Under the pieces are notes generated by a model, which searched no databases, was not told where the DNA came from, and worked only from the letters and a program-made list of their open reading frames with translations. From Alphaproteobacteria bacterium (GTDB taxonomy: Bacteria > Pseudomonadota > Alphaproteobacteria > UBA828): a stretch of 64,000 nt of DNA. Position 1 is the stretch's first letter. Each line of letters starts with the position of its first letter. A program made the position numbers and the translations under genes. The stretch spans positions 32,001-96,000 of the forward strand of contig CBDCQT010000003.1 of the NCBI GenBank assembly GCA_965220745.1, in the 5' to 3' direction. Positions 4,981 to 28,153 of this stretch are shown here, piece by piece.

Positions 4981-5246
4981 CCTGCGGCCTCTTTGAGAAT
5001 CTGCTTGTCCAGCGTCAGATCGGAGACCGCACGGCGCAGCCGCTCGTTCTCCTTCTCGAGCTCCTTCAAACGGCGGAGCTGATCGCCGCTCATCCCGGCA
5101 TACTCCTTGCGCCAGCGGTAGAAGGTAACCTCGCTGATCCCAAGCTCGCGGATCGCGTCCGCCATCGACATGCCCTGGCCGTTCAGAACCTCAGCCCGCC
5201 GCAGCAGGTTCACGATTTCCTCAGGCTTGTAACGCTTCCTTGCCAT
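4968..5246 (-). CDS. IS3 transposase OrfA (HTH)
   Basis: MARKRYKPEEI, LGISEVTFYRWRKEY, LKELEKENERLRR; AGAGGAGG RBS upstream. Confidence 0.93.
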   Translation of the reverse strand: MARKRYKPEEIVNLLRRAEVLNGQGMSMADAIRELGISEVTFYRWRKEYAGMSGDQLRRLKELEKENERLRRAVSDLTLDKQILKEAAGGNF

Positions 5247-5412
5247 CGTCGGTCCTCCTCTTTCCATAACCTAAGGGTGGACCAATCCGATGGGGGAGGA
5301 TCACCAGTGCGGCACCAGCCGCTCAAGGGTAGCGCGGCCCTAACGGACAATGTTGACGCTCTCGAACTTAAGGGCGTCGAGATACGCGACTTTGCTGGGT
5401 CTGGCCGGTTCC

Positions 5413-6291: not shown

Positions 6292-6378
6292 CTTGCCCGC
6301 TCCCGTATCTTGAATTTCGACCTGAAGGAAACGGGCTTATCGGTCGCGCTGGCTGCACAAGGAGAGGGAGTGGACGTC

Positions 6379-7596
6379 CTAAAGCGACGGGGCGCCGCCT
6401 TCGAGGGGGATGATCTCCACCGCGGTGCCGCGCGCGGCCGCAGGCGCGTGGGGCGGGCGGACGACGAGACACTGCGCCTTCACCAGCAGCGAGAGCATCG
6501 AGCTGTCCTGCTTCGCGAACGGCGTGGCGATGAGCGCGCCGCTCTCGTCGCGCGTGAGCGTCGCGCGTAGGTAGTCTTCCCGCTCGTCGTTCTCCCCGAC
6601 ATCGGCGCCGAGGCTCGCCTGCTGAACCATCGGATGGGCGCTCTCGTCGGTGCCGAGCATCCGTGCCATCGCCGGCCTGAGGAAGATCAGCGCGCAGACG
6701 AGGGACGAGACCGGGTTGCCGGGCAGGCCGAGCAGGCGGGTGCCGCCGACGGTGCCGAACATCAGCGGCTTGCCGGGTCGCATGGCAATCTTCCAGAAAT
6801 CGAGCGCGAGCCCTTCGTCCTTGAGCGCGTCGCGGATCAGGTCGTGCTCGCCCACCGAGGCGCCCCCGGTGGTGACCAGCAGGTCCGCGCCGCCTGCACC
6901 GGCGGCATGGCGCACGAGGGACTCCGGGTCGTCGCGGGCGATGCCGAGGTCGATGGCCTCGCCGCCGCAGCCTTCCACCACGGCCCTGAGCGCGTGCGTG
7001 TTGGAGCTCACGATCTGGTTGGCGCCCAGCGGCTCGCCGGGCATGACGATCTCGTCGCCGGTGGCGAGCAGCGCGATGCGCGGCTTGCGGCGGACCGTGA
7101 GCCACGGCTGGTTCATGGCGGCGGCGAGGCCGATGGCGCGCGCATCCAGCCGCCGGCCTGCCGGGACGCCCACTTCGCCCGCACGAAAGTCGAGCCCGGC
7201 TGGGCGGATGTAGCGGCCCCCCGGCGCGCCCGCGCGTACGGCGATGGCATCGCCGTCGGCCTCGGTGTTCTCCTGGATTACGATGGTGTCGGCGCCGTCG
7301 GGCACCGGGGCGCCTGTAAAGATTCGCACGGTCTCGCCGGGCCCGACCGTGCCCTCGAATCGCGCGCCGGCCGGAACGCTGCCGATCTGGCGCAGCGTGG
7401 TGGGCGGATCCGCGACATCGGCAGCCCGCGCCGCGTAGCCGTCCATCGCCGAAACGGCGAAGGGCGGCTGCGTGAGGCGGGCAACGACATCAGCCGCCAG
7501 CACGCGGCCGTGGGCCGCGGCCAAGGGAACGGTCTCCGCCGGCAGCGGCGAGAAGGCGGCGGTGATGCGGGCGACGGCCTCTGCGACCGGGATCAT
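6379..7596 (-). CDS. moeA: Molybdopterin molybdotransferase
   Basis: SAMDGYA, IFTGAPVP, ATGDE, TGGASVG, MRPGKP, GLPGNPVS. Confidence 0.97.
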   Translation of the reverse strand: MIPVAEAVARITAAFSPLPAETVPLAAAHGRVLAADVVARLTQPPFAVSAMDGYAARAADVADPPTTLRQIGSVPAGARFEGTVGPGETVRIFTGAPVPDGADTIVIQENTEADGDAIAVRAGAPGGRYIRPAGLDFRAGEVGVPAGRRLDARAIGLAAAMNQPWLTVRRKPRIALLATGDEIVMPGEPLGANQIVSSNTHALRAVVEGCGGEAIDLGIARDDPESLVRHAAGAGGADLLVTTGGASVGEHDLIRDALKDEGLALDFWKIAMRPGKPLMFGTVGGTRLLGLPGNPVSSLVCALIFLRPAMARMLGTDESAHPMVQQASLGADVGENDEREDYLRATLTRDESGALIATPFAKQDSSMLSLLVKAQCLVVRPPHAPAAARGTAVEIIPLEGGAPSL

Positions 7597-7599
7597 CGG

Positions 7600-8076
7600 T
7601 CAGGGCGCCTTGAATTCGCCGGACCGGCCGCCCGCCTTGTGGGTGAGCCGCACGTCGGTGATGCGCATGCCGCGATCGGCGGCCTTGCACATGTCGTAGA
7701 CGGTGAGCGCGGCGACGCTCGCGGCGGTCAGCGCCTCCATCTCGACCCCGGTGCGCGCGGTGATGCGGCAGCTTGCCTCGATGTCGATGGCACCCGCTGC
7801 TTCGTCGCAGGCGAGCGTCACGTCGACGGCGCTGAGCGCGAGCGGGTGGCAGAGCGGGATCAGATCGGCGGTCCGCTTGGCGGCCATGATGCCGGCGAGG
7901 CGGGCGACGCCCAGCACGTCGCCTTTGGCGACGCCGCCTTCCGCGATCAGGCGCACGGTCTCGGGCTTCATCAGCACCCGCGCCCGCGCCGTCGCCCGGC
8001 GCTGGGTGACCTCCTTCTCGGTCACGTCCACCATGCGCGCCTTGCCTTCTTCGTCGATGTGCGTGAGCCGCGCCAT
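7600..8076 (-). CDS. moaC: Cyclic pyranopterin monophosphate synthase
   Basis: [29 protein letters not shown]. Confidence 0.97.
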
Positions 8077-8079
8077 GGC

Positions 8080-8910
8080 TCAGCCCTCCGCTGCCTGGGC
8101 GGCGGGCGTCTCGGCGGGCGCAGGGGCGAGCAACGCTGCCGTCGCCGCCGCGACATCTGCCTGGCGCATGAGGGATTCGCCAACCAAAAACCGGCGCACG
8201 CCGAGCGCCGTCATGCGCACGATGTCTTCAGGGCTATGCAGGCCGCTTTCACAGATGACGGGCGGCCCACCGGCCGCGAGCGGCGCGAGGCGCTCGGTGG
8301 TCGCGAGATCGACCTCCAGTGTCTTCAGGTTGCGGTTGTTGATGCCGAGCAGCGAGGCGTCGAGCTGGAGCGCGCGCCGGAGCTCGGGCTCGTCATGCAC
8401 CTCAACCAGCGTGTCCATGCCGAGCTCCGCCGCCGCCGCCGCAAGTTCTGAGGCCTGGTCGTCGCTGAGAGCCGCCATGATGAGCAGGATGCAGTCCGCG
8501 CCCAGCGCCCGCGCTTCGACCACCTGATAGGGGTCGAGCATGAAATCCTTGCGCAGCACGGGGAGCGAGACCGCCGCGTGCGCCTCGGTGAGATACCGGT
8601 CCTCGCCCTGGAAGTAGTCCTTGTCCGTCAGCACCGAGAGGCAGGCCGCGCCGCCGGCGGCGTAGGCGGCGGCCAGCGCCGGCGGGTCGAAGTCGGCGCG
8701 GATCAAGCCCTTGCTCGGCGATGCCTTCTTGAGCTCGGCGATGAGCGCCGGCCGCCCAGTGTCGGCGACCGCGGCGAGCGCCCGAGCGAAGCCGCGCGGT
8801 GGTTCGACGGCGAGCGCCCGATCGGCAAGCGCCGCCTGGGAGACGGCCCGCTTGCGGGCGGCGATATGGTGCCGCTTGTCGTCGCAAATCTTCGCGAGGA
8901 CGTCGCTCAT
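8080..8910 (-). CDS. trpC: Indole-3-glycerol phosphate synthase
   Basis: [33 protein letters not shown]. Confidence 0.97.
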
Positions 8911-10103: not shown

Positions 10104-11384
10104 TCACGGCTCGGGGTAGGCGTCGAAGGCGATGCCGATGCGCTCGCCCGGTCCCTTGAAGGGCAGCGTCCCGTGAAAGACGTAAGACGGGAAGAGTAGT
10201 GCGGTGCCGGCGCGCGGCGGGAGGCTGACGCAACGGAACGTGCTGCCTTCGGGCAGGTCGTGGTCGGGACGGCCGAACTCGAGCCAACCGCCGTGGTCTT
10301 CGCTCTCGGCACCGATCTGCGGGGGCACCGCGACGTAATAGACCCCGCTCAGCCACGCGCTCTCGTGAATATGCGGCGGGTGCCGCCCGCCGGCCGTCAG
10401 GATCGAGGCGATCAGCGTCAGGCGATAGCGCCGGGGGATACGTGCGAGAAAGGGGCTCTCGGGGTCCGCCGTCAGCGTCTCCCGGTAGGCGTCGATGGCG
10501 GCGCGCAGTGCGCGCTCCAGGCCGCGGATGGGTGGGCTCGGCGCCGCCAGCATGTCCTGGGTCACCGCGCCATTGCGGGTCACGCGGTTGGGCGGCTCCC
10601 AGACCAGGGAGGGCGCCTCGCGAACGGCGGTTGCCAGCGCTTCGTTGAAGGTTTCGATGTCGCCGCTGCCGAGCGGAGGCGTGAGGGAGACCCGCGTCAC
10701 GAAGCGGTCGAAGTCGTAGAGGTTGCTGCCGGCCTCACTTTCGCCCCCGATCTGTTCGGCGAGCGCGCGGGTCGCCAGCGCGTTCTGGCAGAAGGGGTCG
10801 ATGGCGAGCGCGGTGGCACAGGCGGCCAGCGCACGATCCACCGCGCCGAGGGCGAGATGAGTCCGCGCCAGCCGGTGGTGCGCCTGCAGATCGTAAGGGT
10901 CGAGGGCAATGGCCTTGCGGTAGGCCGTTGCAGCCTCCTCGCCCATGCCGGCCGCGCTGAGCGCGTTACCAAGATTGGTATGGGCGTTGGCGTAGTCGGG
11001 GCGGAGCGCGACGGCGCGTTCCAGCACGTCGCGGGCCTCGGCGGTCTGTCCGGTCTCGAGCAGGAGGATGCCGAGGCTGTTGTGCGCCTCGGCGTAGGTG
11101 GGCGCCACCTCGGTCGCCTGGCGCAGCAGTACGGCCGCCTCGTCGAAGCGACTGCAGCGGTAGCGGGCGACGCCGGCATAGTGGAGGACGCTGGGATCGG
11201 CCGCCCCATCCCCCGCCAGCAGCTTCGAGAGGAGCTGGTCCGCCCTCTGTGGGCGGCCTTCCTTCATGTGGCGCGCGGCGCGGGCGAGGACGTCCCCGTG
11301 CGCGACACCCTTGGCGCCCGCGCGGGGACCGGCGGTGCCGGCCGCCGACTGCCGCGACTGCCGTCGTCTCGCCCGTCGGTTCAT
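10104..11384 (-). CDS. TPR-repeat protein with C-terminal putative 2OG-Fe(II) oxygenase domain
   Basis: TPR repeats (AEAHNSLG, ANAHTNLGNAL), then HPPHIH...WLSGVYY, LFPSYVFHGT, ERIGIAFD. Confidence 0.85.
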   Translation of the reverse strand: MNRRARRRQSRQSAAGTAGPRAGAKGVAHGDVLARAARHMKEGRPQRADQLLSKLLAGDGAADPSVLHYAGVARYRCSRFDEAAVLLRQATEVAPTYAEAHNSLGILLLETGQTAEARDVLERAVALRPDYANAHTNLGNALSAAGMGEEAATAYRKAIALDPYDLQAHHRLARTHLALGAVDRALAACATALAIDPFCQNALATRALAEQIGGESEAGSNLYDFDRFVTRVSLTPPLGSGDIETFNEALATAVREAPSLVWEPPNRVTRNGAVTQDMLAAPSPPIRGLERALRAAIDAYRETLTADPESPFLARIPRRYRLTLIASILTAGGRHPPHIHESAWLSGVYYVAVPPQIGAESEDHGGWLEFGRPDHDLPEGSTFRCVSLPPRAGTALLFPSYVFHGTLPFKGPGERIGIAFDAYPEP

Positions 11385-11884: not shown

Positions 11885-13228
11885 ATGCGTGTCAACCGAC
11901 GTACCATCCTCAAGGGAGCGTTGGCGGGAACTGCCGGTGTCGCGGCTGCATTCCCCCACATCTACATCAAGGACTTCGGGCAGGCCTGGGGCGCGAAGCC
12001 CTGGATCTACGAAGACGAGCCCATCAAGGTCGGCATGCTCTGGTCGCAGACCGGCAACCTCTCGGTTGTCGAGAACGATTCGACCCAGGTCTCGCTCTAC
12101 GCGGTCGACGAGATCAACGCGGCAGGCGGCATCGCCGGCAAGATGGTCGAGCCGGTGGTGGTCGACGCCAAGTCCGACATCAAGGTCTATTCGGAGAAGA
12201 TCACGCAGCTCATTCTGAGAGACCGCGTGGTGTCGGTGCACGGCAGCTACACCTCGGCGAGCCGCCGTGCGGTCATGCCGATCGTGATGAAGTGGGACCA
12301 CCTTTACTACTACCCGACCTGCTACGAAGGCCGGGAGTGCATGCAGAACATCATCAACACCGGGCCGCTCGCCAATCAGCACTCGTATGACCTGGTTCCG
12401 TTCATGGTGGAGAACTTCGGCCCCAAGACCTATCTGGTCGGCTCCAACTACATCTGGCCGAAAGAGTCCAACAAGAACGTCAAGGTCTGGCTTGAGCGGG
12501 CCGGCGGCGAGGTGCTGGGCGAGGACTACATCCCCCTCGGCGGCTCCGAGTTCGCGCCGGTCTTCAACAAGATTCGCCAGCAGCAGCCGGACTGGATCAT
12601 GTCGACGGTGGTCGGCGATTCCGATATCGCGCTGCACCGGCAGTTCCTGCAAGAAGGCTTCAAGTCCGACAAGACGCCGATCGCATCGCTTACCACCGGT
12701 GAGATCGAGACCCGCGCCATGGGCAACGAGGCCGGCGCCGGTCACTTCCTGTCTGCACCTTACTTCCAGACCCTGCAGAACCCGACCAACGAGAAGTTTG
12801 TGGAGGGTTATCTCTCGAGCCAGTACGGCGGCGGGGGCGTCACCCACTACAACATGGAAGAGACCTATCTCGGGATCTACGTGTGGAAGAAGGGTGTCGA
12901 GCGCGCCCTCGAGGAGACCGGCGGCGACTGGGAAGCCATCACGCCGCGCATGATCCGCGACGTCAGCGGTAACTGGCGCGACCAGGGCCCGGTGACGCTG
13001 AGCGACGAGGAGAGCCCGGAGGGCAAGGTCTGGATCGATCCGGACAACTTCAACATCTGGCTCAAGCCCAAGATCGGCCAGTGCGGTGCGGACGGTCAGT
13101 TCACCATCGTGCGCCAGGCCGACGAGCACGTCGGGCCGGATCCCTTCGCGATCTATCCCGAGCGCGGCGTCTGCAAGGCCGACGGCCTGCACCGGCCCGA
13201 CGGGACGGTTCAGAAGGACGTTCTGTAA
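11885..13228 (+). CDS. Urea/short-chain amide ABC transporter substrate-binding protein (UrtA/FmdD/AmiC family), Tat-exported
   Basis: NRRTILKG Tat motif, IKVGMLWSQTG, GSYTSASRRAV, YPTCYEG, VGSNYIWP. Confidence 0.88.
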   Translation: MRVNRRTILKGALAGTAGVAAAFPHIYIKDFGQAWGAKPWIYEDEPIKVGMLWSQTGNLSVVENDSTQVSLYAVDEINAAGGIAGKMVEPVVVDAKSDIKVYSEKITQLILRDRVVSVHGSYTSASRRAVMPIVMKWDHLYYYPTCYEGRECMQNIINTGPLANQHSYDLVPFMVENFGPKTYLVGSNYIWPKESNKNVKVWLERAGGEVLGEDYIPLGGSEFAPVFNKIRQQQPDWIMSTVVGDSDIALHRQFLQEGFKSDKTPIASLTTGEIETRAMGNEAGAGHFLSAPYFQTLQNPTNEKFVEGYLSSQYGGGGVTHYNMEETYLGIYVWKKGVERALEETGGDWEAITPRMIRDVSGNWRDQGPVTLSDEESPEGKVWIDPDNFNIWLKPKIGQCGADGQFTIVRQADEHVGPDPFAIYPERGVCKADGLHRPDGTVQKDVL

Positions 13229-13252
13229 GACACCTGTTTGATCTGGTAGTGT

Positions 13253-13281
13253 CGGGGCGGAGGGGCAGTTCCTCCGCCCCG
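13253..13281 (+). terminator. GC-rich hairpin after the binding-protein gene (partial terminator or mRNA stabiliser)
   Basis: CGGGGCGGAGG-ggcagtt-CCTCCGCCCCG. Confidence 0.5.
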
Positions 13282-13388
13282 CCGCTCCCCGGCGGGGGAG
13301 GAAGGCGGCGGCCGGCTGACTTCACGGGCACGCACTTGCGGGGCACTGTCGGCAAGACCGCAACAGGGAGAGAGGCGAGACTCAATTC

Positions 13389-14291
13389 ATGAGCGTCCAC
13401 GATTTCTGGACACCCTTCGCCGCAGAACCGTTCATTAATGCGCTGATTATCGGGCTCAGCCTGGCCAGCATCTGGCTGGTCGCGGCGCTGGGCCTGACCA
13501 TCATTTACGGCACCATGGGCGTCATCAACATGGCCCATGGCGAGTTCATCATGCTGGGGGCCTACTTCACCTGGATGATGCAGTATTTCGGCGGGTTCCC
13601 CTGGCTGCTCTGCCTGCCGATCTCCTTCGTGCTTGTCGGCTTCATCGGATGGTTGGTCGAACGCGGCCTCATACGACACTTGTACGACCGACCATTGGAC
13701 ACGCTCCTCGCGACATGGGGCGTGTCCTTGGTCTTCATCCAGAGCATCCGGCTGATCTTCGGCGGCGAGCCGCAATACGTCGAGGTGCCCGACTGGCTGA
13801 CCAGCGTGATGACGATCGACTTCGTCCACGTGCCGTGGATCAGGATCTTCATCTTCTTCGCGGCGCTGGCGCTGGTCGCCATGACCTGGGCAATCCTGTT
13901 CAAGACCAATATCGGCATCCAGGTTCGCGCCGTCATGCAGAACCCGCAGATGGCGGCGTCGTTCGGCATCAATTCGAGCCGGGTGTACGGCCTCACCTTC
14001 GCCTATGGGGCGGGCCTCGCGGGAATCTCGGGCTCCATGTTCGCGGGCCTGAAGACGATCTTCCCGGACATGGGGCTGGGCTACGTGGTCGAGGCCTTCC
14101 TGGTGGTGGTGACGGGCGGCGGCGAGCTATTCGGCAGCCTGGCGACAGCCGGCATCATGGGCGAGATGTTCTCGATCTTCTCCTACTTCACGAACGACAC
14201 CTTCGCCCGCTTCGTGCTGTTCATCCTGATCGTGATCTTCCTGCGCTTCCGTCCGCAGGGGATCTTTGCGCCCAGCATGGCGCGGCGCTAG
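13389..14291 (+). CDS. Amide/urea ABC transporter permease (UrtB-like)
   Basis: GVINMAHGEFIMLGAY, LYDRPLDTLLATWG, RPQGIF. Confidence 0.9.
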   Translation: MSVHDFWTPFAAEPFINALIIGLSLASIWLVAALGLTIIYGTMGVINMAHGEFIMLGAYFTWMMQYFGGFPWLLCLPISFVLVGFIGWLVERGLIRHLYDRPLDTLLATWGVSLVFIQSIRLIFGGEPQYVEVPDWLTSVMTIDFVHVPWIRIFIFFAALALVAMTWAILFKTNIGIQVRAVMQNPQMAASFGINSSRVYGLTFAYGAGLAGISGSMFAGLKTIFPDMGLGYVVEAFLVVVTGGGELFGSLATAGIMGEMFSIFSYFTNDTFARFVLFILIVIFLRFRPQGIFAPSMARR

Positions 14292-14297
14292 GGCAGG

Positions 14298-15449
14298 GTG
14301 AACGTCATGTTGTTGGAAAGGTTGAAACTGGAGCCAACGGGGCAGCGGCAGAACCTCTATCACGACAAGCGCGCGCAGTGGGCGATGTACGTCGTCGCCT
14401 TCGGCGCGCTCGCCACCATCCCCGTGTTCATGGGCGACGACCCCTTTGCGCTCAACCAGTTCGCGCGCTACGGCGTCTTCGGCATGCTGGCGCTTTCGGT
14501 GAGCCTGGTGTGGGGCTTTGGCGGCATCCTCAGCCTGGGCCAGGGAATCGCCTTCGGCATGGCGGCCTACGGCATGGGCGCCACCATGCAGATGCAGTAC
14601 CAGGATCCGGAATACGACCCGATCCCGAGCTTCATGCTGACCAACGAGCTGGAGGAGCTGCCCACGGTCTGGGAGCCCTTCTGGCATACCGAAGTCGGGC
14701 TGATCCTAGCGCTCGGAATCCCGACGCTCTTCTTCATCATCTTCGGCTTCCTGATGTTCCAGGCGCGCCTGGCCGGCGCCTTCGTCGCCATCATGACGCT
14801 CGCCATGCTCGGCGCCTGGTACAACATGGCCTACGACATGCAGCCGTTCACGGCGGGCTTCAACGGTATCTCGCCGCCCAGTTCGTTCCAGGCGTTCGGC
14901 GTCGATGTGGACCCCTACAGCAGCATGATCTACTGGGTGGCGCTCGGTGTTCTGGCCGCGCTGACGCTCGGGACCAAGGCACTGCTTGCGAGCAAATTCG
15001 GCACCATAATTCAGGCGATACGCGACGACCCCGAACGCGCGCGTTTCCTCGGCTACAACGTCGCCTTCTATCAGGTGACGGTGTTCACGATTTCCGGCCT
15101 CATCGCCGCGATCGCGGGCATCGTTTGGGTGATGATCGTCCAGTACGTCTCGCCGACGTCGCTGGAGATCTTCTTCAGCATCACCATGGTAATCTGGGCC
15201 GCTGTCGGCGGCAGGCTCTCGCTGTTCGGCGCGATCTTCGGCGCCATCTTCATCAACACGATCCAGAGTTACGTGGGCGACGAGTTCCAGGCCGCCTGGT
15301 TCGTGATCCTCGGCACGATCTTCATCGTCGTCGTCCGCTTCCTACCGAAGGGAATTGCCGGCCTGTTCGAAATGATCATCGGCCTCGTCCCCTATCGCGG
15401 CCGCGCGCCGGTTCAGCCGACCCTCGGCCCCCGGCGGGCATCGGACTAG
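14298..15449 (+). CDS. Amide/urea ABC transporter permease (UrtC-like)
   Basis: LVWGFGGILSLGQG, AIRDDPERARFLGY, VIWAAVGGR; start may be ATG 14307. Confidence 0.9.
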   Translation: MNVMLLERLKLEPTGQRQNLYHDKRAQWAMYVVAFGALATIPVFMGDDPFALNQFARYGVFGMLALSVSLVWGFGGILSLGQGIAFGMAAYGMGATMQMQYQDPEYDPIPSFMLTNELEELPTVWEPFWHTEVGLILALGIPTLFFIIFGFLMFQARLAGAFVAIMTLAMLGAWYNMAYDMQPFTAGFNGISPPSSFQAFGVDVDPYSSMIYWVALGVLAALTLGTKALLASKFGTIIQAIRDDPERARFLGYNVAFYQVTVFTISGLIAAIAGIVWVMIVQYVSPTSLEIFFSITMVIWAAVGGRLSLFGAIFGAIFINTIQSYVGDEFQAAWFVILGTIFIVVVRFLPKGIAGLFEMIIGLVPYRGRAPVQPTLGPRRASD

Positions 15450-15461
15450 GAGGACGCGGGC

Positions 15462-16217
15462 GTGAGCGCGATTCTGGAAGTCACGGAGGTGACCAAGGCC
15501 TACGACGAGTACAAGGTCGTCGACAGCTTCAGCTTCCAGGTCGATGAGGGCGAGCTGCGCTGCCTGCTCGGGCCGAACGGTGCGGGCAAAACCACGACGA
15601 TGGACCTGATCACCGGCCGTCAGAAGGTGACGGCGGGCAAGATCATGTTCCAGGGCCGCGAAATCACGGGCCTGCCGGAGCACCGGATCGTGAAGCACGG
15701 GATCGGCCGCAAGTTCCAGGTGCCGGCGGTGTTCAGGGACCTCACCGTGCGCGAGAACCTGCAGGTCGCCAACAGCCGAAACACCAATCCCTTCATCAAC
15801 ATGATCACGTTCCGCCAGCGGGCGGGGCGCGACAAGCTGGACGAGATCGTCGAGCTTGTCGGGCTCCAGGAACGGCTGGACGAGCTCGGCGGCAATCTCA
15901 GCCACGGCGAGACCCAGTGGCTCGAGATCGGCATGGTGCTCACCCAGGATCCCAAGCTCCTGCTCATGGACGAGCCCACCGCCGGCATGACCGAGCAGGA
16001 GACCCACCGCACCTCCGAAATCTTCAACCGTCTGAAGGGCACGCGAACTCTCGTCGTGGTCGAGCACGACATGGCGTTCGTGCGCGAGATCGCCGACATC
16101 ATCACGCTCATGCATCTGGGCAAGACACTGGCAGAGGGCCCCATGCATGAGGTGGAGAACGATCCAAGGGTGCGCGAGGTCTATCTCGGCGCCGAGGGCA
16201 TCAGCGATGCTGCTTGA
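15462..16217 (+). CDS. Amide/urea ABC transporter ATPase (UrtD-like)
   Basis: GPNGAGKTT, GIGRKFQVP, LSHGETQWLEIGM. Confidence 0.9.
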   Translation: MSAILEVTEVTKAYDEYKVVDSFSFQVDEGELRCLLGPNGAGKTTTMDLITGRQKVTAGKIMFQGREITGLPEHRIVKHGIGRKFQVPAVFRDLTVRENLQVANSRNTNPFINMITFRQRAGRDKLDEIVELVGLQERLDELGGNLSHGETQWLEIGMVLTQDPKLLLMDEPTAGMTEQETHRTSEIFNRLKGTRTLVVVEHDMAFVREIADIITLMHLGKTLAEGPMHEVENDPRVREVYLGAEGISDAA

Positions 16218-16905
16218 GCTGGAAGGCGTCACATCCTTCTACGGCAAGACGCCGATCCTGCAGAACGTGAGCCTGGGCGTTGCCCACGGCCACTGCATGG
16301 CGGTGCTGGGGCGGAACGGCGTCGGCAAGACGACGCTGGTGCGCACCATCATGGGGCTGACCACGCGCATGACTGGCACGCTCAGGATTGCCGGCGAGGA
16401 CGCGAGCGACATGCCCACGCACCAGCGCTCCGAGATCGGCATCGGCTACATCCCGCAGGGGCGCGGCATCCTGCCCAAGTTCTCGGTGCGGGAGAACATC
16501 CTGCTCGGGACCTTCGCCCGCAACGACAAGCGGCGGAAGATCCCCGACATGTGCCTCGACCTCTTTCCTTATCTGGCTGAGAACCTGGACAAGCGGGCGG
16601 GGCAGCTCTCGGGCGGTCAGCAGCAGCAGCTCGCGATCTCGCGCGCGCTCGCGACCGATCCGAAGATCCTGCTGCTCGATGAGCCGACGGAAGGCATCCA
16701 GCCCAACATCGTGCAGGAGCTCGAAGCCACGATCATGCGGCTCAACACCGAAGTCGGGCTCACGCTCGTGCTCACGGAGCAGCACATCAAGGTTGCGCGC
16801 GAGCTTTCGCACGAGTTCGTCATCATGGACAACGGTCTGGTCGTCGAGGGTGGCCCCATTGACGCATTGACCGACGAGGTCGTCGACAAGTACCTGACGA
16901 TCTAG
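16207..16905 (+). CDS. Amide/urea ABC transporter ATPase (UrtE-like)
   Basis: GRNGVGKTT, YIPQGR, LSGGQQQQLAI, DEPTEGIQP; ATG 16207. Confidence 0.9.
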   Translation: MLLELEGVTSFYGKTPILQNVSLGVAHGHCMAVLGRNGVGKTTLVRTIMGLTTRMTGTLRIAGEDASDMPTHQRSEIGIGYIPQGRGILPKFSVRENILLGTFARNDKRRKIPDMCLDLFPYLAENLDKRAGQLSGGQQQQLAISRALATDPKILLLDEPTEGIQPNIVQELEATIMRLNTEVGLTLVLTEQHIKVARELSHEFVIMDNGLVVEGGPIDALTDEVVDKYLTI

Positions 16906-16947
16906 GCATACGAGGGCCGAGGCAGCAGACGCGAGGGGGGACCCAGA

Positions 16948-17388
16948 ATGATCCGTATTCCGCCAAAAGGCAGTCCCGATCGGGATCGTCTCATCGAGGA
17001 GCACAAGGCGTGCATCGAGTCCATGAAGGGCGTTGCCGGCTGCTCGATCCTGCGCTGCGCGACACCGGGCGACACCACCGAGGTCAGCGGCGGCATTCAC
17101 GAGGACTTCCAACTCAACCGCGTGCTGCTGCGGATGCGGGCCCAGCCGGCGAAGGGCAAGCTCGTGGTGGTCTGCACCAAGATCGAGAAGGAGTGGCGCA
17201 TCGCGCGGTGCTCCGGCATCCGCGGCGTGCCGCCGGAGTTCGTCTCCGACAAGGTGTACGACAACGAGCAGGACCCGCAGCACGACATCTTCCTGATGCG
17301 GCTCGACGAGTTCCCGGAGACCGACGGCTTCCCCGAGCATTTCCACCAGGGTTGGAAGCGCCGGGACGACAATTGGGCCGCGTCCTAG
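16948..17388 (+). CDS. N,N-dimethylformamidase small subunit-like protein
   Basis: IEEH...LNRVLLRMRAQPAKGK...WRIA...PPEF...QHDIFLMRL parallels the DMFase small subunit as I recall it (VEEH..LQRV...RMQPTFGK..YRIA..HAVFLRRI). Lies directly upstream of the large subunit. Confidence 0.7.
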   Translation: MIRIPPKGSPDRDRLIEEHKACIESMKGVAGCSILRCATPGDTTEVSGGIHEDFQLNRVLLRMRAQPAKGKLVVVCTKIEKEWRIARCSGIRGVPPEFVSDKVYDNEQDPQHDIFLMRLDEFPETDGFPEHFHQGWKRRDDNWAAS

Positions 17389-17487
17389 GGCGCGGGCCTA
17401 AGCGATCATTCCGGGGTTCCACGCGGTAACCGATCAGGACGCGCGAGCGGCCGCCAGGGCCCGCGCGATTTAGGGGAGAGACACCCG

Positions 17488-19893
17488 ATGGCTTGGATGA
17501 GACTGACGGGATATGCGGACAAGTTCGGCGTCCATCCCGGCGACACGATCCGCTTCTATGTGAATTGCGACGGGCCGAAGTCCTACGACGCCCAGCTCGT
17601 GAAGATGATCAACGGCGACACCAACCCGCGCGGGCCGGGCCTGATCGAGCGCAAGAGGCGGGCGTCGCTCAACGGCAGCTACAAGGGCCGCCGTCAGGTC
17701 ATCCACAGCGGCTCCTACGGCTGCGTGGAGGACAATTCGCAGCTCCGCGTGCAGAGCTTCACGCTGCAATGCTGGGTCTGGCCAACGACGCCGAAAACTC
17801 ATCCCAAGTACTGGAAGCACGGCGCCCAGGGCCTGGTCACCAAGTGGCACAGGAACAAGGGCTACGGCCTCTTCATCAACGAGGACGGCTGCGCCGAGCT
17901 CCGCATCAACGGCAAGAAGGTCACGACCGGCGCGCCGCTGCGCGACCATGCCTGGCACTTCCTCGCCGCGACCTACAACGCCGAGACCGGTCAGGCGATC
18001 CTCTATCACGAGCCGCAGGTGGTCTACGCCCTCGACCCGGTGATCAGGCCCGCGAAGGAAAAGATCGAAGGGCCGGTCAGGCATGACGCGAGCCCGGCGG
18101 TGATCGCCGGCTACACCGGCGCACACAGCAACGATCCTACGGCGCAGTCGTCGGTGCCGGCGGGCATCATCATCAACGGCCACTACAACGGGAAGATCGA
18201 CGGCCCCCGGATCTGCAATCGCGCGCTAAGCCGGGAAGAGATCGAGACCATGAAGCTCGGCGCCCAGCGCGGCATGACCGAGCGGCGCAACTCCGGCCCC
18301 ACCGGCGCGCTCTCCGAGACCATCGTCGCCGCCTGGGACTTCTCCGACGGCATCAACACCATCGTCGGCAAGGACCACGGGCCGTACTTGCTCGATGCGC
18401 AGATCGTCAACTGCCCAACCCGCGCCATGACCGGCCACAACTTCTCGGGCAACAACTTCGACTGGAAGCATGCGCCGCAAGAGTATGGCGCAATCCACTT
18501 CCATGACGACGACGTGGACGATGCACGCTGGGAGGTCGACTTCGAGTGGACCGTGCCGGCGAACTACGAGAGTGATTCCTATTGCGTCAAGCTCACCACG
18601 GACGAGGGCGACGAGGACTACATCCCCTTCTTCGTCGTGCCGCGCCCAGGCGAGGAGCAGGCCAAGATCGCGGTGATGATGCCGACGATCAGCTACATGG
18701 CCTACGCCAACGAGCATCTCGCCAACAACGCCGGCGGTGCGGAGCTGCTGGTCTATCGCGTGCCGATCATGCAGCACCAGAACATGTTCCTGGCCGAGCA
18801 CCGCGAGTACGGCGGCTCGATCTACGACACCCACACGGACGGCAGCGGCCTCTGCCTCTCGTCGAGGCTCAGGCCGATCCTCAGCATCCGGCCGCAGTAC
18901 GATCACTTCCTGATGCAGGCGCCCTGGCAATACCCGGCCGACCTGCATCTGATCTATTGGCTCAACCAGCTGGGCTACAAGTACGACGTCATCACCGACG
19001 AGGATGTGAACTACGACGGCCTCGCGCGGCTGGAAAACTACAACGTCGTGATCACGGGCTCGCATCCGGAGCACAACTCCGGGCCGCAGCTCGACGCGAT
19101 CCACGACTACACCCAGCGCGGCGGCCGCTTCATGTACATGGGCGCGGACGGCTTCTACTGGATCCATTCCTACCATCCGGCCTACGACCATCTCGGGCGC
19201 GGCATCATCACCGAGATGCGCCGATGCGAATCCGGCATCCGGACCTGGCGGGCGGACCCCGGCGAGTACTATCACCAGTCCACCGGCGAGCTCGGCGGCA
19301 TGTGGCGCTATCGTGGGCGCTACCTGCACTCGATCGCCGGCACCGGCATGTCGTCCGAAGGCTTCGATATTTCGAGCTACTACTCGCGCACGCCGGAGAG
19401 TAACGATCCGCGCGTCTCGTGGGCCTACGAGGGTATCGACTACGACGAGAAGATCGGCAACTTCGGCCTAGTCGGCGGCGGTGCCGCCGGCACGGAGCTC
19501 GACATCGTCGACACCCTGCTCGGCTCGCCGCCGCACACGCTGATCACCGCGACCTCGGCGGGCCGCCATACCGAGGGCTATCTGCTGGTGATGGAGGACT
19601 TCGGCTTCAACCAGCAGGGCCTCGACGGCACCCAGCACCCGCGCGTGCGCTCGGACATCGCCTATCACGAAACGCCCAACGGCGGCGCGTGCTTCGCGTT
19701 CAGCTCGATCGCGTTCTGCGGGTCGCTACCGTGGAACAACGGCGATCCCGAGAAGAACAACATCTCGCGGCTGGTGAAGAACGTGCTCGACCGCTTCTCG
19801 CAGGACGGCCCGCTACCGCCGCCGCCGCGCAGCGCGATCAAGCATCGCGGCCGCGCCGATTACGACCCGCCGCTCAACAAGAAGCGGAAGTAG
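17488..19893 (+). CDS. N,N-dimethylformamidase large subunit family amidohydrolase
   Basis: LamG-like N-terminal region (SFTLQCWVWP, WHFLAATY, YNGKIDGP), EYGAIHFHDDD, SYMAYANEH, SIYDTHTDG, SSRLRP, TGSHPE, GGGAAGTELD. Confidence 0.88.
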   Translation: MAWMRLTGYADKFGVHPGDTIRFYVNCDGPKSYDAQLVKMINGDTNPRGPGLIERKRRASLNGSYKGRRQVIHSGSYGCVEDNSQLRVQSFTLQCWVWPTTPKTHPKYWKHGAQGLVTKWHRNKGYGLFINEDGCAELRINGKKVTTGAPLRDHAWHFLAATYNAETGQAILYHEPQVVYALDPVIRPAKEKIEGPVRHDASPAVIAGYTGAHSNDPTAQSSVPAGIIINGHYNGKIDGPRICNRALSREEIETMKLGAQRGMTERRNSGPTGALSETIVAAWDFSDGINTIVGKDHGPYLLDAQIVNCPTRAMTGHNFSGNNFDWKHAPQEYGAIHFHDDDVDDARWEVDFEWTVPANYESDSYCVKLTTDEGDEDYIPFFVVPRPGEEQAKIAVMMPTISYMAYANEHLANNAGGAELLVYRVPIMQHQNMFLAEHREYGGSIYDTHTDGSGLCLSSRLRPILSIRPQYDHFLMQAPWQYPADLHLIYWLNQLGYKYDVITDEDVNYDGLARLENYNVVITGSHPEHNSGPQLDAIHDYTQRGGRFMYMGADGFYWIHSYHPAYDHLGRGIITEMRRCESGIRTWRADPGEYYHQSTGELGGMWRYRGRYLHSIAGTGMSSEGFDISSYYSRTPESNDPRVSWAYEGIDYDEKIGNFGLVGGGAAGTELDIVDTLLGSPPHTLITATSAGRHTEGYLLVMEDFGFNQQGLDGTQHPRVRSDIAYHETPNGGACFAFSSIAFCGSLPWNNGDPEKNNISRLVKNVLDRFSQDGPLPPPPRSAIKHRGRADYDPPLNKKRK

Positions 19894-19910
19894 GGGGTCG
19901 CCGCAGGCAC

Positions 19911-19941
19911 GGACGGGGCGGGTGGTGCACCCGCCCCATCC
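19911..19941 (+). terminator. Hairpin between the DMFase-like large subunit and Rieske-like genes
   Basis: GGACGGGGCGGGTG-gtg-CACCCGCCCCATCC; no U-tract. Confidence 0.4.
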
Positions 19942-19965
19942 CAGCGCGGCCGAGGGTCTGGCCCG

Positions 19966-21084
19966 ATGACGATGCGGCCCGATCTCGACTACGTGGACGA
20001 GGGCGTCGATCTTCAGGATCCCGCTCTCTACAAGCCGTCGCGCGGGCGTTTCGGCAAGGCGAGCATCCTCACGCCCATCGCCTACCGCTCCAAGGTCTTC
20101 GCCGACCTGGAGGACGAGAAGATCTGGACCCGGAGCTGGGTCTGCATCGGCGCGCAGCGCGATATTCCCAACGTCGGCGACCTGCTGCCCTATACGGTGG
20201 GCAACCACGGCGTTCACGTGCAGCGCGGCGATGATGGGCTGGTCGGGCGCTACAATCTGGCGCAGCACGGCGGCTGCCGCTTCGTGCCGGCGCAGTGCCA
20301 GACCGGCTCCAAGACCAGGTGCTCGTTCACCTCATGCGGCTACAGCCGCGATCGCGGGGTGATCGCCGCTGACGAGCTCGGCGACAACACGCCGACGATG
20401 CGCCAGTATCTCGGCTACCGGCCCGAGCGCCTGCTGCCGGTATCGGTGGAGAGCGAGGGGCCGCTCCTTTTCGTCAATCTCGATCCCGAGGCCGCACCGC
20501 TCGCCGAGCGATTCGATGGCGTGGCCGAGGCGCTCGATCTCGACGCCGCTGCGGACTGGGAGACTGCCGGGAGCTTCCGGGTCGAGTACGAAGCGAACTG
20601 GAAGCTGCTCGGCCGCGCGCTGCTCCGTTCGCTTGCGCCCGAGGCCAAGGCCGTGAAGAAGAGTGGCGACGCCATCGCGCTCAAGGCGGGCATCGATTAT
20701 TCCGACGCGCCGGCGACGGTCTTCTGGCTCTTGCCGAACCTGATCCTGCTGCGCGCCGAAGACCTCTTGGTGAGCATTGTGCTGCAGCCTACCGCGCTGG
20801 AGGAGACATTGGCCCGCGTCAGGATCAGCGCGGCACGGCCGATCGAGGCCGCGAGTGTCGAGACGTTGCGTGTGGCCCTCGACGAGGCCGGTGGCGAGGC
20901 GGCGACCCAGCAGGAGGAGCTGGCGCGGTTCGGGACGCCTTCCCGGCCGCAGACGCGTCTCGACGCGCTCCCGCTCGAAGAGGACCGCGCCGCCCACCTG
21001 CTCCAGGCCTACGTGATCGGGCGGCTGCTGAAGCGCCACGAGGTTCACCAGGCGGGCCCGCTCTACGTCGCCGCCGTGCGCTGA
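19966..21084 (+). CDS. Ring-hydroxylating (Rieske) oxygenase alpha-subunit-like protein with non-canonical metal ligands
   Basis: Family landmarks E.EKIW.RSWVCIG...IP..GD, LLPV.VE..GPLLFVNLDP, ANWKL, W.LPNL are present. The Rieske segment reads NLAQHGGCRFVPAQCQTGSKTRCSFTSCGY. Confidence 0.75.
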   Translation: MTMRPDLDYVDEGVDLQDPALYKPSRGRFGKASILTPIAYRSKVFADLEDEKIWTRSWVCIGAQRDIPNVGDLLPYTVGNHGVHVQRGDDGLVGRYNLAQHGGCRFVPAQCQTGSKTRCSFTSCGYSRDRGVIAADELGDNTPTMRQYLGYRPERLLPVSVESEGPLLFVNLDPEAAPLAERFDGVAEALDLDAAADWETAGSFRVEYEANWKLLGRALLRSLAPEAKAVKKSGDAIALKAGIDYSDAPATVFWLLPNLILLRAEDLLVSIVLQPTALEETLARVRISAARPIEAASVETLRVALDEAGGEAATQQEELARFGTPSRPQTRLDALPLEEDRAAHLLQAYVIGRLLKRHEVHQAGPLYVAAVR

Positions 21085-21389
21085 TGGTCTTCAGCGTCCA
21101 GCAGATCAAGTACGAGATCCTCGCCTACATCAAGGAGTGCGGCGGGGAGTTCGGCGACTACTACGTCGGGATCGCGGCGGACCCGAAGAAGACCCTCTTC
21201 GACGTCCACAAGGTGGACAAGGACGCCGACCCCTGGCTCTACAAGCAGGCGCTCACCTTCTACGCGGCGCAGACGGTTCAGGACTACTTCCTGCGCAGGC
21301 TGAAGGCCGACGGCGAGCCGGTGTACGACGGCGACGAAGATACGGACTGCGTCTATGTCTACAAGAAGAGCGAGCGGACCGTCCCGTAA
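21084..21389 (+). CDS. Hypothetical protein (101 aa)
   Basis: TGATG stop/start coupling with the upstream gene; strong GC3 codon bias; YYVGI...H and VYVYKK. Confidence 0.8.
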   Translation: MVFSVQQIKYEILAYIKECGGEFGDYYVGIAADPKKTLFDVHKVDKDADPWLYKQALTFYAAQTVQDYFLRRLKADGEPVYDGDEDTDCVYVYKKSERTVP

Positions 21390-22116
21390 GGCGCGACGCC
21401 CGGCGAAGTCCCGAGATGACGGAACGCGGGCGGCGCGGGCGCGCCAGGAGGACGCCGCCATCGAGGAGGGGCGGCGCGCCTACATGGCCCGCGACTTCGA
21501 GCGGGCGCGGGCGCTCTGGCTGCCGCTGGCCGAGGCCGGCAATGCCGAGGCGCAGGCCTGGGTCGGCTCGCTCTACGCCAACGGCGACGGCGTCGAGGCC
21601 GACGCGGCGGCGGCGTTCGCCTGGTACCTCAAGTCGGCCGAGGGCGGGAACGTGCTGGCCCAGAGCAACGTCGGCGCGATGTACGCCATGGGCAGCGGCG
21701 TCGCCCAGGACATGGCGGAGGCGGTGCGCTGGCTGCGGCGTGCGGCCCGCGGCGGCGATGCCAACGCCCGCTTCAATCTTGGCGTGCTCTACAGCCAGGG
21801 CAACGGCGTGCCGCAGAACCACGCCCGCGCCGCCGAGTGGTACCGCAAGGCGGCGGAGACGGGGCACTACCAGTCCCAGGCGCGTCTCGGCCACATGTAC
21901 CTGGCGGGCGAGGGCGTGAAGAGGGACCGCGTTCAGGCCTTCCTGTGGCTCTCGCTTGCCGCCCGGCACGGCATCGGCTCCGCCCTCACCGCCCTGGAAG
22001 CGGTGGTCAAGGAGATGTCGTCGGACGAGAAGGCGCAAGGCATGCGCCTCGTCGCCCAGTGGCGCGGCAAGGCCGATAGTGACGCCGACGTGCTCATCGA
22101 CCCGGTGCCCGTATAA
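21355..22116 (+). CDS. Sel1-like repeat protein
   Basis: Four Sel1 repeats (e.g. ARFNLGVLYSQGNGVPQNHARAAEWYRKAAETG); start uncertain. Confidence 0.88.
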   Translation: MSTRRASGPSRKARRPAKSRDDGTRAARARQEDAAIEEGRRAYMARDFERARALWLPLAEAGNAEAQAWVGSLYANGDGVEADAAAAFAWYLKSAEGGNVLAQSNVGAMYAMGSGVAQDMAEAVRWLRRAARGGDANARFNLGVLYSQGNGVPQNHARAAEWYRKAAETGHYQSQARLGHMYLAGEGVKRDRVQAFLWLSLAARHGIGSALTALEAVVKEMSSDEKAQGMRLVAQWRGKADSDADVLIDPVPV

Positions 22117-26930: not shown

Positions 26931-27094
26931 CGTGCCGCGCTATACCGGGCGCGCTTCTGGGCCGGGCAGGTCATCCGGCGAGTTCGAAGAGATAGGCGTC
27001 AAGAATGGCCCATCAAGAGTACACTGCTCCCGCAGGGCGGGGCCTCGACGATGGAGGCGGGCAAGTGGACACTCAGCGCACCATGCAGGACGGC

Positions 27095-28153
27095 ATGCTC
27101 AAGTCAGCGCGGGTCTCCAACTATCGCGTTCTTGACGAGCTCTCCATCGATCACTTGAGTCGCGTCAATCTGATCGCGGGTCGCAACAATGCGGGAAAGA
27201 CGAGTCTGCTCGAAGCACTTTTCTTGTTGTCGGGGGCCGGTAATCCCCAGATGGCACTCAACTCGAACGTTATTCGTATGCCGGACTTGCCAATGTCTGG
27301 AACGCCGGAAATTTTGCGTGAAACTTACTGGAAGCCGATGTTCACCAAGCTCGATACCGATAGAGTCATCGAAATTGAGGGTGTGCACGCTATACGAGGC
27401 CCTCTAAACCTTCGGATGTTGCTGGAGCGGCCAACCGTCGTCGAGCTTCCTCTTGGAGACTCGAAAGAAATTTCGGCAAAGGACCTACACGGCGAACCAC
27501 CTTTTTTGCTTTCCTATAGAGGAGGCCCCGAGCCAGAGGTAGAGGGTCGTGTCAGGTATGCCGGACAGTCTATTCAGATTGACCAGCCCAACGTACCGGT
27601 GCCGTTTGATGCCGTGATTTTGCCGACGCAAGTTGTGAACCAACCGGATAATGCGGAACGCCTGAGCCGACTCAGGAAGCGTAAGCAGGATGCGCAGCTC
27701 TTCGCTGCCTTGAGGATAATCGAGCCGAGGCTGCAAAGCATCGAAGTCAATTCCGCAAGCGGCTTCCCCATGATATGGGGCGATATCGGCCTGCCCGAAC
27801 TCGTACCCTTAGCGATGATGGGTGAGGGCATGACCCGGCTCGCCCGGCTTGTATTGGCTATCGCGACCGTGCCGAGTGGCCTTGTGCTGGTGGACGAGAT
27901 TGAGACTGGCCTGCATCACACCGTCATGGGCGACGTTTGGCGTGCAATCGACGAGGCGGCAAAGCAGTTCGACACGCAGGTCGTCGCGACGACCCACAGT
28001 TACGAGTGCATTCGGGCTGCCCATGAGGCTCTCGGTAGTGGCGACGGTTTTCTACTTCACCGCTTGGAAGCTTCCGACGCGGGCAACCGCTGTGTTACGT
28101 ACCAGCCCGAGTCCATCGACGCTGCGATGCGCCATGACCTGGAGGTTCGTTGA
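27095..28153 (+). CDS. ABC-type ATPase (AAA_15/AAA_21-like)
   Basis: NYR, NLIAGRNNAGKTS (Walker A), MGEGM (signature), VLVDEIETGLH (Walker B), ATTHS; more A/T-ending codons than the flanks. Confidence 0.88.
   Translation: MLKSARVSNYRVLDELSIDHLSRVNLIAGRNNAGKTSLLEALFLLSGAGNPQMALNSNVIRMPDLPMSGTPEILRETYWKPMFTKLDTDRVIEIEGVHAIRGPLNLRMLLERPTVVELPLGDSKEISAKDLHGEPPFLLSYRGGPEPEVEGRVRYAGQSIQIDQPNVPVPFDAVILPTQVVNQPDNAERLSRLRKRKQDAQLFAALRIIEPRLQSIEVNSASGFPMIWGDIGLPELVPLAMMGEGMTRLARLVLAIATVPSGLVLVDEIETGLHHTVMGDVWRAIDEAAKQFDTQVVATTHSYECIRAAHEALGSGDGFLLHRLEASDAGNRCVTYQPESIDAAMRHDLEVR

Follow-up and report, generated by a model that had tools for sequence, protein, structure and literature searches.

What does a protein do that has kept the fold of a Rieske oxygenase and lost the two iron centers by which Rieske oxygenases are defined? 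The question is raised by one gene in a stretch of 64,000 nucleotides from an alphaproteobacterium of the UBA828 lineage (assembly GCA_965220745.1, contig CBDCQT010000003.1, positions 32,001 to 96,000 of the forward strand). This whole stretch is called the window here, and positions are counted from its first letter. The gene encodes a protein of 372 amino acids (aa), referred to as the Rieske-like protein, and lies directly downstream of a gene for the large subunit of an enzyme resembling dimethylformamidase (DMFase), in a cluster that begins with genes for a Urt-like importer. On balance, the sequences incline us to the reading that the Rieske-like protein is a non-catalytic, metal-binding accessory of this Urt-linked DMFase-like amidohydrolase.

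An Oxygenase Fold without Oxygenase Ligands

The gene and its parts are located as follows.

19966-21084, + strand: Rieske-like gene, 372 aa, with the fold of a Rieske-oxygenase alpha subunit but neither the canonical Rieske ligand set nor mononuclear-iron ligands
20083-20490, + strand: N-terminal Rieske-like domain (residues 40-175), which forms the conserved core
20215-20217, + strand: codon of His84, which is His in 221 of 221 four-cysteine proteins
20254-20352, + strand: rewired ligand loop N97...D129 with A99, H101, C104, C111, C119, T122 and C124 (CX6CX7CX4C)
20491-21081, + strand: C-terminal helix-grip ("catalytic") domain without iron ligands

The frame is uninterrupted, and its stop codon TGA (21082-21084) shares one base with the ATG (21084-21086) of the next open reading frame (ORF) in the string TGATG. 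A first-pass annotation of the window had described the ORF as full length, uninterrupted and coupled to the next gene, and this description holds. Among family models, PF00848 (ring-hydroxylating oxygenase catalytic domain) scores 19.2 bits, below its cut-off of 24.9, and neither PF00355 nor any other Rieske-family Pfam model has a match at E <= 0.1. The NCBIfam models GbcA, HcaE, BenA and AndAc match partially and weakly, all far under their cut-offs (the best, GbcA, with 48.1 bits against 670). A profile of 27 family members retrieves CntA on top among PDB sequences (E 1.3e-15) and other Rieske-oxygenase alpha subunits more weakly. An AlphaFold2 (AF2) model built on a 144-sequence alignment has a predicted local distance difference test score (pLDDT) of 91.5 and a predicted template modeling (TM) score of 0.91, with pLDDT 82/89/92 for the blocks of the cysteine loop. 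Its best Foldseek match is again CntA (E 1.8e-17, TM ~0.6), followed by stachydrine demethylase and then by classical dioxygenases. An earlier AF2 model from 27 sequences gave the same matches, with the cysteine loop (residues 100-126) below pLDDT 50. The predicted fold is that of a Rieske-oxygenase alpha subunit with two domains.

The alpha3-type oxygenases CntA (6y8j, 6y9c), GbcA and Stc2 (3vca) share with the Rieske-like protein this two-domain fold, a similar length and a series of motifs, namely the N-terminal E.E..W, N97, D129, NWK, and FPN- and QP-type motifs. In contrast to them, the Rieske-like protein has Ala for the first cysteine and Thr for the second histidine, carries neither the bridging acid nor the 2-His-1-carboxylate site, adds the invariant C104, C111, C124 and H84, and has no reductase partner gene in its cluster. 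In a hidden Markov model (HMM) alignment to canonical Rieske oxygenases, Cys1 corresponds to A99, His1 to H101, Cys2 to C119 and His2 to T122. The Rieske motif reads A99-Q-H101...C119-S-F-T122, and only His1 and Cys2 are left of the canonical four. The stretch N97-L-A-Q-H101-G-G-C104-x6-C111-x7-C119-x4-C124-G-Y (nt 20254-20343) is found just as the first-pass annotation had read it.

The same annotation had stated that the iron motif after NWK is replaced and that no late Asp ligand is seen, and the family alignment bears this out. After NWK (211-213), the protein reads LLGRALLRSLAPE at the place of the CntA iron motif Y-M-E-C-Y-H-x4-H. The E-C-Y-H-x4-H part of CntA is aligned to R-S-L-A-P-E, with A224 at the position of the first His, so that CntA's bridging acid and its two His ligands fall on non-ligand residues. 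Residues 176-372 contain no His, Asp, Glu or Cys that is >=90% conserved among 144 family members. In the C-terminal domain, only N211, W212, K213, P257, N258, L259, Q274 and P275 are conserved to this degree, and we take them to be structural elements that belong to the oxygenase fold. The other Rieske-oxygenase paralogues of the same genome served as a control, and nine of nine have both CxH...CxxH and NWK...YH....H.

Since the 2Cys/2His Rieske set, the bridging acid and the 2-His-1-carboxylate site are all lost, the Rieske-like protein, as judged by these alignments, cannot work as an oxygenase. An oxygenase of another kind would have to feed electrons from a non-canonical Fe-S cluster to a non-canonical metal site of the C-terminal domain, and might, for instance, N-demethylate an amine released by the amidohydrolase. 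Such an activity would suit the closest relatives, since CntA, GbcA and Stc2 act on methylated amines as quaternary-amine or N-methyl oxygenases, and it would suit the NWK, FPN-like and QP motifs that remain of the catalytic domain, as well as the many methylotrophs among the carriers of the gene. We regard it as highly improbable, however, given a C-terminal domain that offers no conserved candidate ligand, places non-ligand residues where CntA has its acid and its two histidines, and is the fastest-evolving part of the protein. Nor is a reductase or ferredoxin gene found among the cluster genes (11885-22116), although such partners can be encoded elsewhere and the rest of the genome was not searched for them.

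By descent and fold, the protein belongs to the Rieske-oxygenase superfamily, yet it has none of the catalytic features of a member. Its database relatives are named "Rieske (2Fe-2S) protein," "ring-hydroxylating oxygenase subunit alpha," "SRPBCC family protein" or "hypothetical protein," of which the first two are misleading as functional annotations for this family.

Four Fixed Cysteines and a Histidine

What has taken the place of the Rieske ligands? A census of the loop was made on an HMM alignment of 268 relatives and weak matches, 251 of which cover the loop and 17 do not. All four cysteines are present in 221 of the 251, and the other 30 comprise 25 canonical proteins and five odd or fragmentary ones, one of which has G at position 104. 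C104 (His1+3), C111 (mid-loop) and C124 (His2+2) have no ligand counterpart in canonical oxygenases. The three additional cysteines of the first-pass annotation are all present, although one of them may have been inherited rather than gained, because the C111 column is already Cys in 10 of the 25 canonical relatives. Position 84 is V, L, I, F or M in all 25 of these.

H101, the remnant of His1, behaves differently from the cysteines. Among the 221 four-cysteine proteins, 196 have it and 25 have Q, F, Y, N or A instead, while the four cysteines and H84 are unvarying in all 221, including these 25. H84 had gone unmentioned in the first-pass annotation. An alignment of the remote subfamily (26 members) keeps only G and P (of GDxLP), H84, N97, G102/103, C104, P108, C111, C119 and C124. 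Where H101 is lost, R105 and T122 also become hydrophobic, and at least 4-6 changes are needed to place the H101 label on a tree of 84 proteins. The deep signature of the family is H-x12-N-x6-C-x3-P-x2-C-x7-C-x4-C. By these comparisons, H101 is to be seen as a lineage-specific addition and not as a universal ligand. Because H101 is replaced in remote relatives while the four cysteines and H84 stay fixed, the pattern favors a conserved core of the type Cys4 (+His84) over 3Cys/1His. Of the two ligand sets suggested by the first-pass annotation, the four-cysteine one is the one favored, and 3Cys/1His loses ground.

Selection on a Rewired Loop

The loop might simply be the wreck of a dying Rieske oxygenase gene, its motifs eroding within one lineage and its extra cysteines accidental. 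One genome per species was scanned, which gave 121 relatives, and the 80 best of them were retained. The 79 of these with a complete frame make, together with the window copy, 80 copies. In all 80, the frame is open and full length, and H81, H84, N97, A99, H101, C104, C111, C119, T122, C124 and D129 are identical, a pattern that is, on this sampling, far from chance. The 144 sequences share 52 positions with >=90% conservation, and 41 of these fall in residues 35-175. Ratios of nonsynonymous to synonymous substitution (dN/dS) were computed after Nei-Gojobori for the window and the 10 closest loci, and the medians of the 55 pairs are as follows.

Rieske-like gene, whole: 0.282
Rieske-like residues 95-130 (cysteine loop): 0.076
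Rieske-like residues 40-175 (N-terminal domain): 0.162
Rieske-like residues 176-372 (C-terminal domain): 0.335
DMFase-like large subunit: 0.077
Small subunit (146 aa): 0.068
101-aa gene: 0.131
Sel1 gene: 0.204

Purifying selection acts on the Rieske-like gene; the loop is very tightly constrained, and the C-terminal half is under relaxed constraint.

The four-cysteine proteins also stand together in phylogeny. In the tree of 84 proteins, 62 four-cysteine rows lie on one side of a branch and 22 canonical rows on the other, with a Shimodaira-Hasegawa approximate likelihood ratio (SH-aLRT) support of 100. The rows with H101 are 39 of the 192 such four-cysteine proteins (the window copy and every fourth protein from the 41st on, 153 being omitted), and to these were added all 23 four-cysteine proteins of >=250 aa without H101 and all 22 canonical matches of >=250 aa. 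The outgroup is narrow, as the canonical rows are only those retrieved by search with the Rieske-like protein. In this tree, the four-cysteine proteins form what reads as a single, old clade set against the canonical oxygenases.

Decay could draw on the fact that this is the least conserved gene of the cluster, with the highest dN/dS and a C-terminal domain higher still, and on the failure of PF00848 to reach its cut-off and of PF00355 to match at all. All dN/dS values are, however, far below 1, and the four cysteines persist where overall identity has fallen to ~32%. No close homologue has CxH...CxxH, the nearest canonical proteins being ~30% identical. We give decay next to no credence, as the conservation and selection data drawn from these sequences already refute it. 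The alignment of homologues and the dN/dS analysis that had been proposed as checks came out with C104, C111, C119 and C124 conserved, in line with the first-pass view that the protein was repurposed.

A Fixed Genomic Partner of One DMFase-Like Enzyme

If the protein is not an oxygenase, with what does it work? The two genes upstream of it encode the subunits of an enzyme.

16948-17388, + strand: 146-aa protein that probably corresponds to the DMFase small subunit, weak match to Paracoccus 6lvb_B (E 0.058)
17488-19893, + strand: DMFase-like large subunit, 801 aa, PF20254 (E 7.1e-88), Paracoccus DMFase 6lvb_A (E 9.3e-158)

The iron ligands of Paracoccus DMFase, Y399, Y440 and E521, are aligned to Y, Y and E in the large subunit of the window. 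The DMFase-like gene lies directly upstream of the Rieske-like gene on the same strand in 80 of 80 genome loci, with a median gap of 80 nt (range 42-185 in 75 measurable loci), and the 146-aa gene is immediately 5' of the large-subunit gene in 74 loci, with 63-99% identity across loci. Across the 80 loci, identity is 75-99% for the enzyme and 38-92% for the Rieske-like protein. The arrangement extends to the H101-less subfamily, where the DMFase-like gene is directly upstream in both of the metagenome loci (L104 and L105, the only two, found with the narrower remote-subfamily alignment); here, the enzyme is 76-79% and the Rieske-like protein 32-33% identical to those of the window.

Co-occurrence points the same way. 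In an even sample of 201 Alphaproteobacteria, an orthologue of the enzyme (>=80% identity) and an adjacent Rieske-like gene (E <= 1e-20) are found in the same three genomes, and the 22 sampled genomes that have only paralogous DMFase-like genes (<=50% identity) have no Rieske-like gene at E <= 1e-20. The genome of the window itself has seven DMFA2_C genes and a single Rieske-like copy. The carriers are metagenome-assembled genomes of Rhodospirillales, other Alphaproteobacteria and Gammaproteobacteria, and many cultured methylotrophs, with Hyphomicrobium, Methylopila, Hansschlegelia, Ancylobacter, Xanthobacter, Methyloligella, Methylobacterium and Afipia among the cultured carriers. In these comparisons, the link appears specific to one enzyme clade in both directions. 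The Rieske-like protein is a fixed genomic partner of one extremely conserved DMFase-like clade with a 2-Tyr-1-Glu Fe site. Gene order and co-occurrence strongly support the link to this enzyme that had been proposed in the first-pass annotation.

In the literature outside subscription-only sources, no publication was found that ties dimethylformamidase to Rieske, ring-hydroxylating, SRPBCC or Sel1 proteins, and nothing relevant on the Rieske-like family or the operon was found.

Some side observations concern the enzyme. Its clade is unusually conserved, the 75-99% identity extending over Alpha- and Gammaproteobacteria, with ~76% to a metagenome contig of soil type. Its large subunit has a conserved C-terminal tail (~775-801, P-P-P-x-x-A-I-K-H-R-G-R-A-D-Y-D-P) past the end of the aligned Paracoccus DMFase, which could serve as a docking element. 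The seven DMFA2_C-family genes in the genome (4.8 Mb) lie on contigs C5, C10, C11, C12 (two), C13 and C3, and several six-frame matches to DMFA2_C paralogues were flagged with one in-frame stop codon. The metagenome locus L105 carries in addition a second, paralogous DMFase-like large-subunit gene (44% identity), a gene for a 127-aa protein resembling the small subunit, and a gene for asparaginase II (4095-6795 and 7389-8417, both on the - strand).

What the Cysteine Site May Hold

The four cysteines do not spell a familiar metal motif. Their spacing, CX6CX7CX4C, contains no CxxC, so that the knuckles of rubredoxins and zinc ribbons (CPxCG) are absent; the site may work like a rubredoxin or zinc-ribbon site without being a member of that class. 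The motif of NEET-type 3Cys/1His [2Fe-2S] proteins, C-x-C-x2-(S/T)-x3-P-x-C-D-G-(S/A/T)-H, is not present in the sequence of the Rieske-like protein either. In respiratory (bc1/b6f) Rieske proteins, box I reads C-T-H-L-G-C and box II C-P-C-H-G-S. C104 presumably corresponds to the loop-bridging cysteine of these proteins, as A-Q-H-G-G-C has the x-x-H-x-G-C spacing of box I. The Rieske-like protein differs from them in having neither the first Cys of box I nor a box II, and in being a soluble, oxygenase-type alpha subunit. A Rieske-like fold that has lost its cluster and become accessory to another enzyme is found in NirD, the small subunit of assimilatory nitrite reductase; NirD is, in contrast, a single small domain and has no replacement set of cysteines.

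The four invariant cysteines could also make two disulfides, and position three after His1 (C104 here) is a disulfide-forming one in respiratory Rieske proteins. The loop would then be a metal-free thiol/disulfide switch or a structural staple, and the protein perhaps a redox-sensing regulator of the amidohydrolase. We hold this to be improbable. No signal peptide is seen in the translation (judged by eye, no prediction tool being used), so that a cytoplasmic location is probable, and stable disulfides are rare in the cytoplasm. Moreover, ~30 near-invariant consecutive residues, many of them Gly, Ser, Thr, Arg or Lys, resemble the shell of a metal site or a docking surface, and this dense invariant shell around the cysteines suggests, as far as sequence can tell, more than a structural staple.

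Re-ligation of a Rieske scaffold has precedents in engineered proteins. In the review PMC2946596, the H64C mutant of the Rieske-type ferredoxin ARF of Sulfolobus solfataricus is described as having a 3Cys/1His [2Fe-2S] cluster, and the H44I/K45C/H64C mutant as having a rubredoxin-like Fe(Cys)4 site; the review also mentions the two disulfide cysteines of respiratory Rieske proteins. These mutants show that the scaffold tolerates re-ligation, which makes an Fe-S cluster or a mononuclear site chemically plausible in the Rieske-like protein. Compared with the mutants so described, which are laboratory variants that keep Cys1 and have Cys at the His positions, the Rieske-like family is natural and ancient, lacks Cys1 and has its new cysteines at His1+3, at His2+2 and in mid-loop.

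The favored reading, a metal-binding accessory, would work as follows. C104, C111, C119 and C124, in the former cluster-binding loops, would form a cysteine-ligated metal center, to which the invariant, buried His84 would belong and, in the proteobacterial branch, H81, H101, R105 and T122 as well. As a rough estimate from the sequences, an Fe-S cluster is about as probable as all else taken together, zinc or a mononuclear iron would come next and only slightly behind, and a site without metal, with redox-active thiols, would be unlikely. The conserved N-terminal domain would act on or with the enzyme as a non-catalytic accessory, be it as a structural or regulatory subunit, as a redox partner that keeps the iron ferric, or as an iron donor. 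The first-pass annotation had suggested a sensor, an electron carrier or an iron donor. The fast-evolving C-terminal domain would be a scaffold only. A more specific version, in which a cysteine-only (Cys4, His84-assisted) Fe-S or mononuclear iron center lets the partner load, re-oxidize or gate the 2-Tyr-1-Glu Fe(III) site, is possible though doubtful.

An independent role in binding small molecules has also to be weighed. The pocket of the SRPBCC-type helix-grip domain may carry or sense a substrate or product of the operon, with the cysteine site being a purely structural zinc. The model shows the helix-grip fold still in place, at high confidence, one relative is named "SRPBCC family protein," and the lost redox partners would fit a structural zinc. 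A pocket for the same molecule should be conserved, however, and the pocket domain is poorly conserved (dN/dS 0.335) next to an enzyme of 75-99% identity. This explanation seems to us unlikely, if slightly less so than that of a metal-free switch.

Several points weigh against the accessory reading. The metal site is putative, since metal binding is read from the invariance of the cysteines. By alignment register, C111 would be at the far tip of the hairpin between the loops, away from the old cluster site, and H84 ~5 residues down the strand from it, so that a single Cys4 site requires a refolded loop; the AF2 model from 144 sequences has a short helix at 109-112 in place of the canonical strands. 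The Rieske-like gene is the fastest-evolving one of the cluster (dN/dS 0.28 against 0.08 for the enzyme), which is unusual for a tightly bound subunit. Paracoccus DMFase was solved as a complex of small and large subunits only (PMC7686228), so a third protein is not generally required for this type of enzyme. Together, the fast evolution and the two-subunit Paracoccus enzyme argue against a tight, obligate subunit.

Expression adds little to the case. Contigs from RNA libraries, 90-99% alike, cover relatives of the small- and large-subunit genes. Two of them (19504-20204 and 19662-19989) run from the 3' end of the DMFase-like gene across the spacer to the Rieske-like gene, and a further one (20236-20390) covers the cysteine loop. 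These contigs are from relatives, and RNA libraries can hold DNA, so that they are weak support for expression. The shares of sampled words in RNA runs were <=0.18, and a stretch at ~20420-20950 left uncovered in most runs was given no weight. A complex prediction with the full large subunit and only residues 1-180 of the Rieske-like protein scored 0.00 and was counted neither for nor against binding.

The Surrounding Gene Cluster

The remaining features of the cluster are these.

11885-13228, + strand: UrtA-like substrate-binding protein of the periplasm, 447 aa, encoded at the head of the cluster, Pfam Peripla_BP_5 (E 1.6e-108)
13389-14291, 14298-15449, 15462-16217 and 16210-16905, + strand: UrtB-, UrtC-, UrtD- and UrtE-like permeases and ATPases of an ATP-binding cassette transporter, all above NCBIfam equivalog cut-offs
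19915-19937, + strand: GC-rich hairpin with a 10-bp stem and no T-run, within the 72 nt that separate the DMFase-like gene from the Rieske-like gene
21084-21389, + strand: 101-aa protein of no known family, no Pfam or NCBIfam match
21355-22116, + strand: Sel1-repeat protein, 253 aa, PF08238 (E 8.7e-38), 35-nt overlap with the end of the 101-aa ORF

Urt-like genes are upstream in most related loci with sufficient flank. The UrtA-like protein scores 311.9 bits with NCBIfam UrtA, under the cut-off of 492.75, and by sequence is probably urea-transporter-like and not urea-specific; the cargo of the importer is probably an amide resembling urea rather than urea itself. Urea was considered as the substrate of the enzyme and thought unlikely, given the score of the binding protein and three separate strong matches to urease alpha subunits elsewhere in the genome.

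Downstream, tblastn finds a relative of the 101-aa protein in 77 of 80 loci, and a Sel1 relative follows in 78 of 80, the order of the two varying. Together with the small-subunit gene, they are present wherever the contig reaches in the 80 loci, with few exceptions. Neither 101-aa nor Sel1 relatives were found on the metagenome loci L104 and L105. Compared with Paracoccus DMFase (6lvb), whose large subunit is matched with its Y, Y and E ligands and whose small subunit is weakly matched by the 146-aa protein, the clade of the window has in addition the C-terminal tail, a Urt-like importer, the Rieske-like gene, and the genes for the 101-aa and Sel1 proteins.

Six loci were aligned over the spacer hairpin, and its stem is preserved in the four closest ones. 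The hairpin is no more stable than shuffled sequences (fold of 19891-19968, -44.8 kcal/mol, z -1.54), and a promoter and terminator scan gave nothing above chance. Two further genes were noted outside the cluster. Upstream of the Urt-like genes, a divergent gene (10104-11384, - strand) encodes a tetratricopeptide-repeat protein with a putative C-terminal 2-oxoglutarate-Fe(II) oxygenase domain (PF13759), and the translation of a 382-aa ORF (27005-28153, + strand) contains a P-loop-like motif, G-R-N-N-A-G-K-T-S.

Implications for the Rieske Scaffold and the DMFase-Like Enzymes

The Rieske-like family has kept the fold, dropped both iron centers and fixed a pattern of four cysteines across lineages that are ~32% identical. 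It is a natural experiment in the re-ligation of the Rieske scaffold, which to our knowledge is otherwise known only from engineered ferredoxin mutants. If the center is indeed a cysteine-only one serving the iron or redox state of the enzyme, the family would be a dead oxygenase turned into a new class of metallo-accessory protein.

The finding is of interest to specialists on Fe-S and Rieske proteins, and also to researchers who meet DMFase-like enzymes in ocean metaproteomes. Dimethylformamide, after which these enzymes are named, is a synthetic solvent. In a Pacific metaproteome study, "DmfA" of Alpha- and Gammaproteobacteria, which may or may not belong to the clade of the window, is reported among the ammonia-producing hydrolases (PMC9477243). 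The clade of the window stays ~76% identical where its Rieske-like partner has drifted to 32%. The role of the partner could give a handle on the maturation, regulation and substrate of the enzyme, and hence on a possibly relevant step of nitrogen remineralization.

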